NCBI GenBank assembly: GCA_965226885.1
Contig: CBDDEL010000012.1
Location: 64,001 to 128,000, forward strand
Length of the DNA: 64,000 nt
Source: Opitutales bacterium
Lineage (GTDB): Bacteria; Verrucomicrobiota; Verrucomicrobiia; Opitutales; UBA2987
Reading direction: 5' to 3'
The notes under the pieces are model-generated. The model ran no database searches and was not told the DNA's origin. It saw only the letters and a list, made by a program, of their open reading frames with translations. How positions within the stretch are numbered: position 1 is the stretch's first letter; every line of letters starts with the position of its first letter. Below are positions 30,480 through 43,050 of this stretch, piece after piece. Both the position numbers and the translations under genes were made by a program.

Positions 30480-30567
30480 TATGATGTGACCGCCGAAAAT
30501 GATGTGACCGCCGAAAACACTACCATTGCCAGTGAGAGTCTTTCTGGAGAAATTACCGGAAAGACCT

Positions 30568-32638: not shown

Positions 32639-33736
32639 TTGAGCAGCATACATAAAATCCTCGTCGTTGACGATCAGCCCGTAAACGTAAAGTTGCTCCA
32701 GTATGCGCTGGAGCGGAACGGGATGCTGGTCTGGTCCGCCTACAGCGGCCAGCAATGCCTCGATCAAGTTAATAATGAAATGCCGGACCTGATCCTGCTG
32801 GACATTATGATGCCCGAAATGGACGGATTTGAGGTTTGTAAAATCCTCAAAGAAGATGAGGCTACCCAGGCAATCCCCATAATTTTTTTAACCGCGAAAA
32901 CTAGCAAAGAGGGAAAATTGAAAGGGTTGGATGCGGGAGCCGTCGATTACATCACCAAGCCGATCGACCTGGAGGAAACGCTTGCCCGGATAAAGACCCA
33001 GCTCCGTTTTCAGCAGATCAACCGCGAAAACATCGAATTGCAGAAGCGCCTGGCAGACTCACGGCAAACCGCTGCCATTGGGGCAATCGCCCAGGGCATA
33101 TCGCACAATCTAAACAACCTTCTCGGTGTGGTGGTAGGCTATCTGGACCTATTGAAAACCATCAAGGATAACCCGGCAGCGGTCGAGCGTTGCTACAATC
33201 AGATTGGCCAGGCCATTCAAAGAATGGTCAATATTGTCCGCAGACTGGGCAAAATCGCCAATAAAGAACATTTTGCTTTGCAACCTCTGTCGCTGCAGCG
33301 ACTCCTCGACAGCAGCATTCGTCGATTCGAGGCCGAGAACAATACATCCGATTCCATAGTGGTTATCAACCCGCTGGAGAATATTCAGGTGCCGGCCAAT
33401 GCTGAAATCTTTGAAAGCATTCTGGGCAACTTGATGATGAACGCTCTGGAAAGTTACCCAGAAGGAGAAGAAAACCGCAAGGTAACCATTAAAACGGAAC
33501 TAGTCGATTCCGATTCCAAACAGAGCATCCTGATAAAAGTTTTTGACGAAGGCACCGGAATCAGTCCTGAAGTTAAAGATCACATTTTTGAACCCTTTAT
33601 CAGCGGAAAAACCTCCGTCGGCCGTGGAATGGGATTGACCATTGCCCGCAACGGAATACGCAACCTCGGCGGCGAACTTATCCACAAACCGAGAACCCGT
33701 GGCGGAACTTGCGCCGAGCTGTTGCATCCCCTTTAG
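32639..33736 (+). CDS. Hybrid receiver + histidine kinase
   Basis: ILVVDD...LDIMMP receiver; SHNLNN H-box; N, D/G1, F and G2 boxes. Confidence 0.92.
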   Translation: MSSIHKILVVDDQPVNVKLLQYALERNGMLVWSAYSGQQCLDQVNNEMPDLILLDIMMPEMDGFEVCKILKEDEATQAIPIIFLTAKTSKEGKLKGLDAGAVDYITKPIDLEETLARIKTQLRFQQINRENIELQKRLADSRQTAAIGAIAQGISHNLNNLLGVVVGYLDLLKTIKDNPAAVERCYNQIGQAIQRMVNIVRRLGKIANKEHFALQPLSLQRLLDSSIRRFEAENNTSDSIVVINPLENIQVPANAEIFESILGNLMMNALESYPEGEENRKVTIKTELVDSDSKQSILIKVFDEGTGISPEVKDHIFEPFISGKTSVGRGMGLTIARNGIRNLGGELIHKPRTRGGTCAELLHPL

Positions 33737-33742
33737 GTCCCG

Positions 33743-33818
33743 TGATCGGACCACCAAAAATACGGCCACTGCCAGTGAGAGTCTTTTCGGAGAAATTACC
33801 GAATTAGCTCATGACGAA
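33743..33818 (+). mobile_element. Solo left-end remnant of an IS3-C relative
   Basis: TGATCGGACCACC...TGCCAGTGAGAGTCTTTTCGGAGAAATTACCG matches the IS3-C left end. Confidence 0.7.
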
Positions 33819-33894
33819 ATACGGTCGCCCATTCAGTTGCCCCACCACCTTGGAAATGGCGATACCCCGTTCCCTTTTCTTTTCAGGATTGCCA

Positions 33895-34053
33895 GTATCA
33901 AACTATATTGTTCTTGATTTCCGGGGATTCAAGGGAAATGGCATTTGAGTATTAAACTTTATTGTTCTTAGGCATTTCACGTTTCACTTTACACTTGTTG
34001 ATCATCAATGATTTATGAATCCGTCCGGTATCAAACTTTATTGTTCGAGTACA
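33895..34053 (-). mobile_element. Tn7-like left-type end (three spaced TnsB-like sites)
   Basis: Minus strand reads TGTACTCG-AACAATAAAGTTTGATAC; the repeat GTATYAAACTWTATTGTTC occurs at 33895, 33949 and 34028. Confidence 0.72.
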
Positions 34054-34128
34054 TGTAGACGGACAATAAAGTTGTATCCTAGACAATAAACTTGGAAACT
34101 GACCACTCCGCGCCGGACAATAAAGTCG
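34054..34128 (+). mobile_element. Tn7-like right-type end (closely packed TnsB-like sites)
   Basis: TGTAGACG-GACAATAAAGT; GACAATAAA occurs at 34062, 34082 and 34116. Confidence 0.72.
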
Positions 34129-34337
34129 ACTCCTGTCCCTGCCAGGTAGAGGAGTGAACGTAACTTGTTGAATCATAAAGGATTCCGATGATATCCCAGG
34201 ATACATTCAACCTCTGAGGAATCCCCGACTCGGTAGTCAACGGCCAAGTTTGCAACCGCCGTTTGCCATTCCATCCCGAAGACAAGGGCCATCGCCGCAT
34301 CGCGGAGAGATTCCTGCGATCCGATGTCTAGTCGCTT

Positions 34338-36357
34338 CTAATACTTCCTGCTGCGCAGCGTCGGTTCCAAACAAGCCAGCAATACGATATCGAAATCGAA
34401 CGATTTCGCCACGATGACACCCAACCGACGAACCGCCTCGGGCTGCGGATTTCTCAATTTGACGTTTTTTGGAAGTTCTCCTTTCGGTGCATCCGGAACG
34501 TAATCTGGCTGAAGCTGAAATGACACCTTCTCCACGTCATCGATGGTAATCTCTGGGTGAATCGGGCGCAATTTACGCCCTAGCCCGGAAATTTCATAAA
34601 AAAAGTATCGCTGATATGCTTATCTGCTGATATACAGCAGGATAGATTAAACATTAAAGCAATATCAGCGATGACAAAAAGTAAACAATTAGAACTACAG
34701 TTGACAAGGGTAAAAGGCCGCCGTGTGCGGGTTGATTTTAAGGGCGGTGAGGTTACTTCGGATGCCGGGCTGCTTTTGATCCGGGAAGTGGATCGGCGGT
34801 TGGGCTTGACCGAGCAAGCGGCCCGGCAATTAGTAGACAAACGGCAGAAGGGCAAAGTGCGCCATGAGATGCTGGCCATGATCCGGCAGCGCGTTTACGG
34901 GCTGGTGGCGGGCTATGAGGATTTGAACGACTTTGACACCCTGCGCCGCGATCCTTTGTTGCAAACGGTAACGGGGCGCACTGAAGCGTTGGCCAGCGCG
35001 CCGACTTTGTGTCGTTTTGAAAACGGGCAGGATCGGCGGGCAGCCTTTGCCCTGAACGAGTTGCTGGTCGAACAGTTCATGGGATCCTTTGCCGAGGAAC
35101 CCGAAGAGATCATCCTGGACTTTGACGCCACCGACAATCCGGTGCACGGGCTCCAGGAGGGACGTTTTTTCCACGGTTATTATGATCATTACTGTTTTGT
35201 GCGCTGTATGTTTTTTGCGGCGATCAGCTTCTGGTGGCCTACCTGCGGCCCAGCAAGATCGATGCGAGCAAGCATGCCGGGGCCATCCTCAAATTGCTGG
35301 TTAAACGGATTCGCCAAAGCTGGCCCCATACGCGGATTATTTGGCGTGCCGACAGCGGATTCTGCCGGGATCGGATTCTCTCGTGGTGCGAGCGCAACGA
35401 GGTTTATTTTATAGTGGGAACGGCCCGCCATGCACGCTTGCAGCAAGCGGCCCGGCAGTTGCAGGAGCAAGCCAAACAATGGTTCGAGGGTAGCGGCAAA
35501 AAGCAACGGCTGTTTCAGCACTTCGAGTATGGGGCAAAATCGTGGCGGCGCCAACGCCTTATCATCCACAAAGCCGAACACACCGCACAGGGGTCCAACC
35601 CGCGCTTCGTGGTGACGAACCTGCAGGGCGATCCCCAAGAGCTTTACGACAAAGTATACTGTGGCCGCGGTGAGATGGAGAACCGGATCAAGGAACAGAT
35701 GCAATTGTTCAGCGAACGCACCAGCGCGCATAAATGGTGGGCCAACCAGTGGCGATTGCTCTTGTCGGGGCTGGCCTACACCTTGATGGAAGCCTTGCGC
35801 CGGTTCGCATTAAAAGGGACGAAGTGGGCGCGGCTCCAATGCCACAGTCTACGGCTAAAATTAATCAAGATCGGAGCGGTAATCGTGCGCAACACCCGAA
35901 CGATTCACTTTCATCTAAGTGAAAGTTATCCATGGGCCAGTCTTTTCAACCATGCGGCCCGCCGGTTGGTGCCAACCTAAAGGGCGCATTGGCGCTGCCC
36001 CCGGCGCTACCGAACCAATGGGGGAAAGGGGGAAGTGTCTCTACACCCTGAAAAACACCTCAAAATCAAGACGATCCGCCCAAAATACAAAGAAATCCAT
36101 CTCCAATAGCAATAACGAGCCAAACTTTACCCTTCATGAAATATCCGGGGTAGTTCTCTGGCTGCCTCGCTGATCTCGGACTCATCTCTGAACTCGGCTT
36201 CCACTTCTGCCCACTCCAATCGCACCATAACCTTTTCCGTCAGCTGGCGGTCGCCTCTGTTTACCAACATAAGTAAGGATGTGCTGACCCTCAGTTTCCT
36301 GGGTGTTTGCGGAGTTCTCGTCAGCGACCTGCTGCTCATTATGCTGGACCCGCGCAT
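34338..36357 (-). pseudogene. Hypothetical gene split by the IS1380 isoform
   Basis: Removing 34584-36149 and one target copy joins ...SEAAREL to GRKLRPIHPEITIDD... in frame. Confidence 0.6.
34584..36149 (+). mobile_element. Divergent IS1380 isoform with frameshifted transposase (34671-35980)
   Basis: Same IRs and many substitutions versus the other copies; frameshift near 35200; flanks CTAG/GTAG. Confidence 0.88.
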
Positions 36358-36436
36358 TCGCTATGATGAAGGCGCAAGTGGAAAATAAAACATTTTCGCT
36401 GGTCTTTACGACAGGAAAAACTACTTTGATTTTTAT

Positions 36437-37342
36437 ATGAATTCTCAACTGCGAGTCGGAATCATCGGCCTGGACACCTCCCACGTGGCAGGGCTAGCCA
36501 ATTTCCTAAACGATCCTCAGCACAAGGATTTTATCCCCGGAGCCCGCATTACGACGGGATACCCCGGAGGTTCACCGGATTTCGAGAAGAGCGCATCGCG
36601 GGTCGAGGGTTTTACCCGGAAACTGAAGGACGAGTTCGGGGTGGCCTTGGTTGAATCTCCCGAGGAGGTGGCCGAACAATGCGATGTTATACTCCTCACC
36701 TCGGTGGACGGGCGCGTTCATCTCGACCAGTTCTCCCGCATCGCCCCTTTTGGCAAACCGACTTTCATTGATAAACCATTTGCGGTAAGCTCTGAGCACG
36801 CTCGTCAAATCGCGGAACTGGCTGAAAAAAACCAGGTCCCCTTGATGAGTTCATCTCCCTTACGTTATGCCGAGGCTTTGACTGTGGCTCTCGCCGGGCG
36901 CTCGGGCGAAAACATAACGGGCGCTGATTTTACCGGCCCCATGCCAATAGAACCCACCCAACCCGGCTTTTTCTGGTATGGCGTACACGCGGCGGAAGCT
37001 CTTTTTGAAGTCATGGGGCCCGGCTGCGCCGAGGTCCGCGTAACAACTGTGGAAAACCATGACCTTGCCGTCGGCCACTGGCGGGATGGGCGCATAGGAA
37101 CCATCCGGGGATTCCGCGGTTCCGGTTATTACTTTGGCGGCGTCCTCCACACGGATAAAGAAATGATATTCCTCGATCTCGATTCCGGCGAGAAAACAAA
37201 ACACGTTCATCTGACGAAATCCATAATCGAATTTTTCCGCACCGGGATAAGCCCCATCGCTGTGGCCGAAACAGTTGAAGTCATCCGGTTTCTGGAAGCC
37301 GCCAACGAGAGCCGCTTGACCGGTAATACCGTGCCGCTCTAA
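36437..37342 (+). CDS. Gfo/Idh/MocA-family oxidoreductase
   Basis: Motifs RVGIIGLDTSH, FIDKPFA and WYGVH. Confidence 0.88.
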   Translation: MNSQLRVGIIGLDTSHVAGLANFLNDPQHKDFIPGARITTGYPGGSPDFEKSASRVEGFTRKLKDEFGVALVESPEEVAEQCDVILLTSVDGRVHLDQFSRIAPFGKPTFIDKPFAVSSEHARQIAELAEKNQVPLMSSSPLRYAEALTVALAGRSGENITGADFTGPMPIEPTQPGFFWYGVHAAEALFEVMGPGCAEVRVTTVENHDLAVGHWRDGRIGTIRGFRGSGYYFGGVLHTDKEMIFLDLDSGEKTKHVHLTKSIIEFFRTGISPIAVAETVEVIRFLEAANESRLTGNTVPL

Positions 37343-40787: not shown

Positions 40788-40952
40788 CTAGGCTGTTGCT
40801 TTTTCATTACTAAATGCATTGAACTTAAATCCAACAAGCTGTAGTATTCAATTTACGCAAATTGATTGGTTGGAAACGACAAGATAGAAATTGAGCTTGG
40901 GTTAGTTACTCAGGCATGGTCAAAGATTAATATTTTAGTTGAGAAAACAACA

Positions 40953-41996
40953 ATGACCACAATTTGTGGGAGCGGGAGTGAGAACCGGGAGGTGGTTCTG
41001 CAGATTGAGGGTTTGAAAACCTATTTTTATACGGAGGAGGGAGAAATTCCGGCGGTCGATGGCGTGAATTTGACTTTGGAAAGGGGAAAGACACTGGCCA
41101 TTGTGGGCGAGAGTGGCTGCGGCAAGAGCGTCACGGCTTTTTCGATTCTTAGGCTCATCCAACGACCGGGCAGAATTTTGGGAGGAAAGATAAAGTTTTT
41201 TCCCATGGGAGGGGAAGTGATCGATATGGTTGCTTTGGATGAGAAGGACGAGCGGCTTTATCAAGTACGCGGCGGCAAGATCAGCATGATTTTCCAGGAG
41301 CCGATGACGGCGTTGAGCCCGGTACACACCATCGGCAACCAGATTTGCGAGGCCATTTTGCTGCATCAGGAAGTTTCGGAAACCGAAGCGCGTCGGTTGG
41401 CGGCCGAGATGCTGGAGAAGGTTGGCATTCCCAACCCTGTAGAACGCCTCAACCAATACGCGCATGAGATGAGCGGGGGAATGCGCCAGCGCGCCATGAT
41501 TGCGATGGCCCTGGTGTGCCGGCCGGAAGTGCTCATTGCAGACGAACCAACGACGGCCCTCGACGTTACCATACAGGCCCAGATTTTGAAATTGATCAAA
41601 GACTTACAGAAAGAGATCGGCACCTCGGTTATCTTTATTACCCATGACCTTGGGGTGGTGGCGCAGGTCGCCGACGATGTGGCCGTGATGTATCTGGGGC
41701 GCATTGTGGAGCGAGCCTCGGTTCGGGAGGCGCTGAAATCTCCGCTCCATCCCTATACCATTGCCTTGCTCGAATCGCTACCCCGCATGGAAAGCCATCA
41801 CCAACGCTTGTCGGCCATCACCGGAAGCGTACCCTCGTTGATGGAAATACCGACCGGGTGCCCCTTTCATCCCCGGTGTTCTCACGCCGCGCCGGGTGTC
41901 TGCGATGTTGGAAATCCGCCCCGTCTCGAGGTGCAGAGTGACGGTCGTCTCGTTGCCTGTTTGCGTATAAAGGAGATAGCGCAGGCACATTCCTGA
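40953..41996 (+). CDS. Oligopeptide/dipeptide ABC transporter ATP-binding subunit (OppD/DppD-like)
   Basis: Motifs GESGCGKS, MSGGMRQR, DEPTTALD, HPYT and GCPFHPRC. Confidence 0.93.
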   Translation: MTTICGSGSENREVVLQIEGLKTYFYTEEGEIPAVDGVNLTLERGKTLAIVGESGCGKSVTAFSILRLIQRPGRILGGKIKFFPMGGEVIDMVALDEKDERLYQVRGGKISMIFQEPMTALSPVHTIGNQICEAILLHQEVSETEARRLAAEMLEKVGIPNPVERLNQYAHEMSGGMRQRAMIAMALVCRPEVLIADEPTTALDVTIQAQILKLIKDLQKEIGTSVIFITHDLGVVAQVADDVAVMYLGRIVERASVREALKSPLHPYTIALLESLPRMESHHQRLSAITGSVPSLMEIPTGCPFHPRCSHAAPGVCDVGNPPRLEVQSDGRLVACLRIKEIAQAHS

Positions 41997-42015
41997 ACCA
42001 ATCCGTGAGACAATT

Positions 42016-43050
42016 ATGACAGCATTGGAGGTTAGTTCATGTAGCGAAACGGAGCCCGAGGTGCCCGGAACGGATCTTCTTTTAAGGGTCCGCAATCTGT
42101 GCAAACATTTTCCCGTTTTCAGCCGTGGATTCTTTAAGAAACAAATCGCCACGATAAGGGCGGTTGATCAGGTTTCCTTTGATTTGAAACGCGGAGAAAC
42201 CCTGGGCCTGGTGGGCGAAAGCGGCTCGGGCAAGACCACCTGCGCGCGAACTATCCTGCGGGCTTTGAAACCGACGGAAGGGGAAGTACTGTTCCGGGCA
42301 AACGGTAAGACTATAGACCTGGCCAGAGTCCAGGAGCGTGACTTGAAACCCTTGCGGACGAAGATGCAAATGATCTTTCAGGATCCGTTTTCATCCTTGA
42401 ATCCACGCATGACGGTTGGCGACATCGTGGGCGAGCCGCTGACGATCCACCGCCTCGCCAAAGGTTCAGAATGGGAGGAGCGCATCGTGGAAATGCTGCG
42501 CATGGTAGGATTGAAACCCGAACACCGTCAGAGGTATCCGCACGCCTTCAGCGGCGGTCAGCGCCAGCGCATAGGGATCGCCCGCGCTCTCATAATGCGG
42601 CCGTCCCTGGTGATCGCAGACGAAGCGGTCTCGGCGCTCGACGTATCTGTGCAGGCCCAGGTAATCAATCTGCTCAAAGACCTGCAAAGCGAATTCAATC
42701 TGACCTATATATTCGTGGCCCATGATCTAAGTGTGGTGCGGCATGTATGTGACCGGGTAGCTGTCATGTATGCGGGAAAAATCGTCGAGATAGCGCCCAC
42801 CCGAGACCTCTTTGACGATCCCCGGCACCCCTACACCAAAGCGCTCATTTCAGCCATTCCCAACCCCGATCCGGACATCAAATTAGATTTTTCAATCGGC
42901 GGCGAAGTAGCCGACCCAGGGAAATTGCCGTCCGGTTGTAGCTTTCACCCCCGCTGCCCCGAATGCTTTGCCCCCTGCAAAAGCGAGACGCCCGAATTGA
43001 TCAGGCTGGAGAAAAACCGCCAAACCGCCTGCCACCTCTACCAGCCTTAA
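42016..43050 (+). CDS. Oligopeptide/dipeptide ABC transporter ATP-binding subunit (OppF/DppF-like)
   Basis: Motifs GESGSGKT, FSGGQRQR and DEAVSALDVSVQAQ. Confidence 0.93.
   Translation: MTALEVSSCSETEPEVPGTDLLLRVRNLCKHFPVFSRGFFKKQIATIRAVDQVSFDLKRGETLGLVGESGSGKTTCARTILRALKPTEGEVLFRANGKTIDLARVQERDLKPLRTKMQMIFQDPFSSLNPRMTVGDIVGEPLTIHRLAKGSEWEERIVEMLRMVGLKPEHRQRYPHAFSGGQRQRIGIARALIMRPSLVIADEAVSALDVSVQAQVINLLKDLQSEFNLTYIFVAHDLSVVRHVCDRVAVMYAGKIVEIAPTRDLFDDPRHPYTKALISAIPNPDPDIKLDFSIGGEVADPGKLPSGCSFHPRCPECFAPCKSETPELIRLEKNRQTACHLYQP

Follow-up and report, generated by a model that had tools for sequence, protein, structure and literature searches.

A pair of back-to-back transposon ends in the 64,000-nucleotide window analysed here, a contig stretch from the genome of an Opitutales bacterium, is very probably the relic of a head-to-tail array of two Tn7-like transposons of the prototypic type. 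What remains is a left (L) end and a right (R) end in array geometry, which abut without a single base between them at positions 34053/34054. Both elements are truncated, and contigs from public sequencing runs cross the junction.

The junction (34053..34054) reads ...AAACTTTATTGTTCGAGTACA/TGTAGACGGACAATAAAGT..., or more briefly ...GAGTACA/TGTAGACGG..., and is defined by the sequence itself, inverted-repeat analysis, comparison with paralogs and bridging contigs. A preceding sequence-only reading had described it as two Tn7-like ends fused ACA to TGT without a spacer, each starting with TGT plus 5 nt and then a repeat, present three times per side in the spaced-L versus packed-R asymmetry of Tn7-family ends. 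Our results bear this description out. Matches to RACAATAAAGT with at most one mismatch number 10 in the window, compared with 1.40 expected (sd 1.11; 100 shuffles, maximum 4, none reaching 10). Six of the ten cluster at 33902-34126, and the other four are isolated singles, each with one mismatch. On the L side, the cores lie on the minus strand at 34035-34045, 33956-33966 and 33902-33912, and the 22-nt repeats start at 34025, 33946 and 33892, a spacing of 79 and 54 bp. On the R side, plus-strand cores occur at 34062, 34082 and 34116, with 21-nt repeats spaced by only 20 and 34 bp. The innermost copies belong to an inverted repeat whose two 31-nt arms are separated by 0 nt.

The terminal TGT and ACA are each 8 bp from the first TnsB-type site, and this placement, together with repeats of ~20-22 bp that are spaced at L and packed at R, is that of Tn7-type ends. 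The R terminus at 34054 consists of TGTAGACG followed by GACAATAAAGT, and the L terminus, read on the minus strand from 34053, of TGTACTCG followed by AACAATAAAGT; the predicted TnsB sites of both ends have the core ACAATAAAGT in common. Boundaries were set by paralogous copies, in which homology starts or stops exactly at ACA and TGT; at the window junction, neither end lacks a single terminal base. The earlier reading had also noted the absence of tns genes and partner ends from the window. Indeed, no tnsA, tnsB, tnsC or tnsD was detected there by tblastn, so that no tns genes adjoin these ends, and the motif scan detected no partner ends.

The left element is reduced to a stub of ~250 bp (33802..34053, minus strand) that starts with TGTACTCG and carries the three spaced TnsB-type sites. 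Together with the R end, this stub (window 33879-34583) matches two other contigs of the same genome, C17 and C4, at 87%; taken by itself, the L part (33879-34053) is 85% identical to contig C62 of a related genome, G002. The stub is bordered by a solo terminal fragment of an IS3-family element (~59 bp, 33740..33801, plus strand) that matches the left end of IS3-type copies, including window 30497-30558 and ~40 other copies in the genome. The same fragment occurs in the same relative place inside the L ends of G002:C62 and of contig C393 of a third genome, G003, and it marks the inner truncation of the left element. It begins 3 bp past the stop codon of a response-regulator/histidine-kinase gene (32639-33736).

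The right element is longer but interrupted. Its first part (34054..34583, plus strand), with terminal TGTAGACG and three TnsB-type sites, has 94% identity to C16:675323-675845 and 87% to C17. An alignment by eye places the window R end one 20-bp site short of the four-site R ends in C16 and C17. As a separate observation, arrays of TnsB-type sites in this family decay by deletion between 20-bp repeats (window 34062-34100 versus C16:675304-675365), and the R end on G003:C116 is down to one site, a hybrid of its first and last. The stub is then split by an insertion sequence of ~1.57 kb (34584..36150, plus strand) that encodes a DDE_Tnp_1_4 transposase (Pfam, E=1.3e-61), itself divided between two ORFs (34671-35414 and 35234-35980). 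This IS is bordered by a TAG duplication (34581-34583 and 36151-36153), and its uninterrupted target is seen in C16. The second part of the stub (36154..36299, plus strand) is 98% identical to C17:872752-872603, C16:675843-675992 and C4, and homology to full Tn7-like elements ends at 36299/36300, giving an R stub of ~675 bp in all. More generally, two repeat families swamp the genome, the ~1.57-kb DDE_Tnp_1_4 IS and a ~1.83-kb element (e.g. C4:396-2225). Copies of each number in the hundreds, are 90-99% identical, and are in many cases nested or truncated.

DNA unrelated to the transposons starts at the R-stub breakpoint (36300..36390, plus strand). Read by eye, the end of its translation resembles a peptide ABC permease C-terminus, so that presumably the 3' fragment of such a gene adjoins the stub directly. 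An opp/dpp-like operon seems to have been broken up in the 36300 region; ABC ATPase genes occur at 40866-43050, past another IS. The next gene is a native one of the Gfo/Idh/MocA oxidoreductase type (36437-37342, Pfam), and the DNA is orthologous to contig C16 of a congener, G004, from window 36355 onward. Thus, the locus sits between a kinase gene and an oxidoreductase gene, not next to glmS. The G002 ortholog of the kinase gene has a proC-like gene after it, with no such repeats or transposon end, and in G004 the ortholog of the right-hand side has other neighbours. No empty site between the kinase and oxidoreductase genes could be reconstructed from the two relatives compared (G002 and G004). 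The locus is two stubs set between unrelated chromosomal segments.

What elements did these stubs belong to? The sequence-only reading had proposed a motif scan of the whole genome and a search for tns genes, and both were informative. In the window's own genome (G000; 17 contigs, 5.48 Mb), the scan located R ends with terminal TGTAGACGG at C16:675293, C17:~873299 and C4:~22164, and L ends of the window type also on C17 and C4. Matches to TniQ, TnsA_N and Mu-transpos_C (Pfam) are confined to these three contigs, and in each of the three copies the R end is followed by tnsA, tnsB, tnsC and tnsD, with TniQ among their domains, so the ends found in the window are those that bound tnsABCD elements. 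In the C17 copy, TnsA has PF08722 and PF08721 domains and matches PDB 1f1z (E=3e-36), TnsB has a Mu-transpos_C domain and matches Tn7 TnsB (PDB 7pik, E=8e-83), TnsC is of the AAA_22/TniB type, and TnsD has PF15978 (E=1.8e-83) and TniQ domains and matches PDB 8glu (E=1.9e-31). The C4 and C16 copies match the C17 Tns proteins by tblastn. The C17 tnsB reads as two ORFs of 204 and 493 aa.

The R end on C16 lies 23 bp past the glmS stop codon, which is the classic attTn7 position, and C16 carries the sole glmS 3' end found in G000. In congeners, the corresponding distances are 24 bp (G003:C116) and 25 bp (G004:C4). Given tnsABCD behind the R ends and R ends 23-25 bp after glmS, we consider this a prototypic-type, glmS-homing relative of Tn7. 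The ends of this family share with prototypic Tn7 the TGT...ACA termini, three spaced sites at L and three or four packed sites at R, and the full copies share the tnsABCD gene order behind the R end, the glmS position and the TnsA, TnsB and TnsD matches given above for C17. Unlike prototypic Tn7, the window copy is a pair of gene-less stubs, away from glmS. The sequence immediately before the R ends in G000 is GCTGG on C16, TTTGT on C17 and C4, and an L end in the window. In a search for a complete copy, which could reveal a 5-bp target duplication, no element with both its own ends turned up in G000. In G004, the 12.4 kb next to the R end contain no L end of the element, and the contigs of G003 are not long enough to include one.

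The presence of autonomous relatives also bears on the suggestion that the locus is a tandem of non-autonomous mini-elements. The tandem geometry stands. The mini-elements do not, as the R stub runs ~675 bp into the conserved leader of the autonomous TnsABCD copies, and the ends are truncated remnants of autonomous elements. Two further sets of ends were noted in the scan. Contig C4 (29.9 kb) repeats ~10 kb of the C17 tnsABCD element and its L/R junction (C17:864082-873815) at 98-99.9% identity and carries extra IS insertions relative to C17; the repeat stems either from recent segmental duplication or from a separately assembled strain variant. A divergent R-type end at G000:C12:398440-398680 has two sites 20 bp apart and resembles the R ends of G004 and G003:C430. 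By our count, its expected terminal TGT reads CGT, and it looks like another dead end.

The only coding sequence of the full elements that persists in the window is also fragmentary. When the nine ORFs of the C17 element were searched against the window by tblastn, matches were found to pieces of just one, a 220-aa ORF, with residues 85-220 at 34176..34583 (minus strand, 94% identity) and residues 32-87 at 36145..36312 (minus strand). In the full copies, its place is between the R end and tnsA, with the reading direction towards the R end (C17:872498-873157). Its identity among C16, C17 and C4 is 99.5-100%, although the end DNA next to it shows differences of 6-13%. It matches no Pfam or NCBIfam family. 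In Atlas it falls among helix-turn-helix clusters with values of 0.90-0.91, which are below the recognition threshold, and with fewer than 170 shared features, so this is a lead only.

Tandem junctions with an L end facing an R end in the same orientation are not confined to the window; they also occur on C17, on C4, twice in G003, and on a metagenome contig, L114. On C17 and its near-duplicate C4, the same L and R ends as in the window are parted by a 10-bp spacer, GTAGTTTTGT (C17:873300-873309 and C4:22165-22174). A pattern scan of 401 genomes of the order yielded five L/R junctions, three in G000 and two in G003, with spacers of 0, 10, 10, 10 and 9 bp (10 and 9 bp in G003); zero occurs in the window alone. 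Contig L114 has the same terminal 8-mers and a 4-bp spacer, ACAT. It came from a metagenome scan with the 16-nt R terminus, which hit at least 119 stretches, 80 of which were examined; 7 of the 80 had at least two site-like matches, and one (L114) was, by reading, a Tn7-type end.

A wider survey, with a single genome per bacterial or archaeal species, looked for pairs of exact site cores lying 14-34 nt apart; it demands exact 10-mers on both sides and so provides a sample only. Of the 79 loci returned, 17 place ACA and TGT at the offsets expected, and further sites on at least one side are present in 16 of these. Spacers in these junctions from other phyla are 2 bp (one case), 4 bp (five), 5 bp (six), 6 bp (three), 7 bp (one) and 9 bp (one), and none of the 17 junctions with Tn7-type termini has a zero spacer. 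At 0 bp, the window junction departs from the 5-bp target duplication expected to part neighbours in an array. Since relatives show 4, 9 and 10 bp and other phyla 2-9 bp, zero can be placed at the far end of a range. Any spacer below 5 bp (L114 and 6 of the 17 elsewhere) implies either a target that overlapped the resident end or a deletion.

The spacer sequences are informative about how such junctions form. The C17 spacer, GTAGTTTTGT, resembles the G004 glmS flank, ...CTGTAGTTGTT, before the R end there, and the G003 spacers have CTAAT in common with the G003 glmS flank. This resemblance suggests that the spacers are remnants of the att flank, and therefore that the junctions arose by repeated insertion after glmS, not from circles. 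As an aside, the 10-bp spacer in G000 is nearer to the glmS flank of G004 than to that of G000 itself, which suggests, from sequence comparison, that arrays may move or be exchanged as units with their inner spacers carried along. A second observation concerns G003:C430 at ~1245-1262, where a 10-bp spacer, CTAATTGTAA, is followed by an R end starting with TGTAA, placing TGTAA twice in a row. This could be the reciprocal signature left when an element inserts at the outermost 5 bp of a resident R end of the same type; alternatively, it could be att-flank sequence or a short tandem duplication.

So, how might two ends come to abut with no spacer at all? The explanation we favour, with a confidence slightly short of an even chance, is that a newcomer inserted at a 5-bp target formed by the outermost bases of the resident R end. 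Elements of the TnsABCD type insert with the R end towards glmS, so that a newcomer lands between glmS and the resident, with its L end beside the resident R end. The newcomer, here the left element, would have taken as its staggered target the TGTAG with which the resident R end begins. Gap repair would then rebuild the resident end intact, directly against the terminal ACA of the newcomer, so that no spacer would be visible, and the second TGTAG copy would precede the R end of the newcomer, which has since been lost. Later IS insertions and deletions would have left ~250 bp of the left and ~675 bp of the right element, and a rearrangement would have moved the relic away from glmS, a step that we propose because of the extreme IS load. 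We infer the order of insertion and the original glmS position along with the overlapping target itself. The sequence-only reading had held that a zero spacer is not the product of a simple insertion; we disagree, as an ordinary insertion with an overlapping 5-bp target suffices.

Inferred glmS distances in the genus of 20-25 bp leave enough room for the shift of +5 that an overlapping target entails. Several observations argue against it. The same end types are 10 bp apart in C17, and an offset that is fixed per element type, as in C17, would predict ~10 bp and not 0. The window spacer is the sole zero in 401 genomes, with no counterpart among the 17 junctions of other phyla, and the locus is away from glmS. 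Furthermore, given the site core common to L and R, one TnsB could bind both ends, and target immunity, which discourages a close second insertion of such elements (PMC11014353), should then have acted against the newcomer.

Nearly as likely as an overlapping target, yet doubtful taken by itself, is the deletion of a short spacer by slippage. Here the tandem relic would have acquired its zero spacer secondarily, the newcomer having inserted ~10 bp upstream of the resident end, with TGTAG as its duplicated target, to give an intermediate of the form ACA-TGTAG-NNNNN-TGTAGACGG, from which one TGTAG repeat and the spacer were lost through slippage between the TGTAG repeats. The four other junction places in the genus all have spacers of 9-10 bp, TGTAG stands exactly 10 bp ahead of the R end in the glmS flank of G004, and the C17 spacer begins with GTAG. 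Moreover, repeat-mediated deletions clearly struck these ends, both in the window R end and in G003:C116. On the other hand, slippage takes two steps and starts from an unobserved ancestral spacer, and the 4-bp spacer in L114 indicates that offsets are not fixed at 10. Both slippage and an overlapping target predict TGTAG before the R end of the left element. This signature, TGTAG followed directly by TGTAGACGG, is absent from all four R ends in G000, and the R end of the left element is not in the genome. Two specific routes from known sequences were considered and rejected. The actual 10-bp spacer of C17 provides no microhomology for a 10-bp deletion that would give the window junction, and slippage at the 11-bp GTAG repeat of that spacer would remove the T of TGT.

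A junction made by joining two cleaved ends is unlikely. It would have formed either when a circular element was re-integrated by IS or homologous recombination, or when the spacer was cut out and the ends were rejoined. The ACA/TGT junction with nothing between has the look of a precise end-to-end join, the abundant IS copies in the genome could recombine a circle back in, and the common site core means that L and R could belong to one element type. However, the full copies here encode TnsA. TnsA and TnsB together excise Tn7 as a linear molecule whose 5' ends carry 3 nt of flank, and we know of no circular intermediate for elements with TnsA. The sister junctions carry spacers that resemble the att flank, which would not be expected from circles. 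No structural feature of the window separates end joining from a tandem array, the stubs being too short. Nothing calls for the circle re-entry or end joining that the earlier reading had offered, and the sister spacers point instead to insertion at attTn7.

One version of end joining we consider more improbable still. Here TnsAB would have paired an L end with the R end beside it in the array and cut on either side of the spacer, leaving the transposon ends to be rejoined. Abutted ends are well known in insertion sequences, where IS21 tandems and the circles of IS30, IS3 and IS911 are active intermediates made by the transposase, with spacers of 1-3 bp. The window junction resembles these reactive junctions in having two transposon ends back to back with almost nothing between, and differs from them in that both flanking elements are dead stubs and there is no indication that TnsAB made or used the junction. 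If TnsAB did make it, the junction would be the Tn7-family counterpart of the abutted-end junctions of insertion sequences, and back-to-back ends could be sites prone to breakage or rearrangement in genomes that bear arrays. A limited literature search found no report of a zero-spacer Tn7-type junction, which is thin evidence of absence.

The possibility that two ends were wrongly joined during assembly deserves attention in a repeat-rich genome of 17 contigs with hundreds of IS copies, in which L and R ends are multi-copy. Confirmation of the junction in reads had been proposed with the initial description, and contigs from public runs do bridge it. In run X19, a 2435-bp contig spans 33650-34191 and shows 0 differences from the window; the run is possibly the source sample itself and hence may not be independent. 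In run X21, from another study, a unitig covers 34024-34191, also with 0 differences, though it reaches just 30 nt to the left of the junction, one below our 31-nt bridging threshold. Run X23 contributes a 211-bp contig that crosses the junction without a gap but with 16 differences, in which a C17-like L end is joined to a window-type R end. This contig could reflect a genuine variant, or else a graph chimera formed via a single shared 31-mer, and because a chimera is possible its support is uncertain. Run X22 shows the C17-type 10-bp form. Runs X1-X18, which contain just small shares of the sequence, were left out of the comparison. With the X19 contig and X21 unitig both free of differences across their spans, and X23 passing through the junction despite its reservations, an assembly artefact is highly improbable. 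Finally, that the repeats are operator sites of a local regulator, as clustered inverted 11-mers adjoining a two-component system gene might suggest, has next to no probability and is ruled out by the same sequences, in the same order and spacing, bounding paralogous tnsABCD elements in the genome and lying after glmS in congeners, as well as by the lack of such repeats after the G002 ortholog of the kinase gene.

The tandem array has a close parallel in the Tn6022 islands in comM of Acinetobacter baumannii, for which multiple or proximal Tn7-like insertions despite target immunity are described (PMC11014353). In both cases, more than one element of the family occupies or lies near one site, and recombination and insertion sequences reshape the locus later (PMC11014353). 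In that account, 5-bp target duplications mark each Tn6022 event (PMC11014353), unlike the spacer of 0 bp in the window and of 4, 9 and 10 bp in relatives, and, unlike the Tn6022 islands as described there, the window locus carries no resistance cargo.

Overall, we conclude that this is an ordinary decayed Tn7-like array with an unusual yet explainable junction, and that it presents no new mobility mechanism. In this glmS-homing family, the spacers between tandem Tn7-like elements depart from the textbook 5 bp, being 0, 4, 9 or 10 bp, which is a caution for annotation pipelines that set the boundaries of Tn7-like elements by a 5-bp duplication. Spacers of less than 5 bp bear on how strict TnsD positioning is and on how complete target immunity is. 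With this locus, a further prototypic-type Tn7 array, now heavily decayed, is documented in a genome swamped by insertion sequences.
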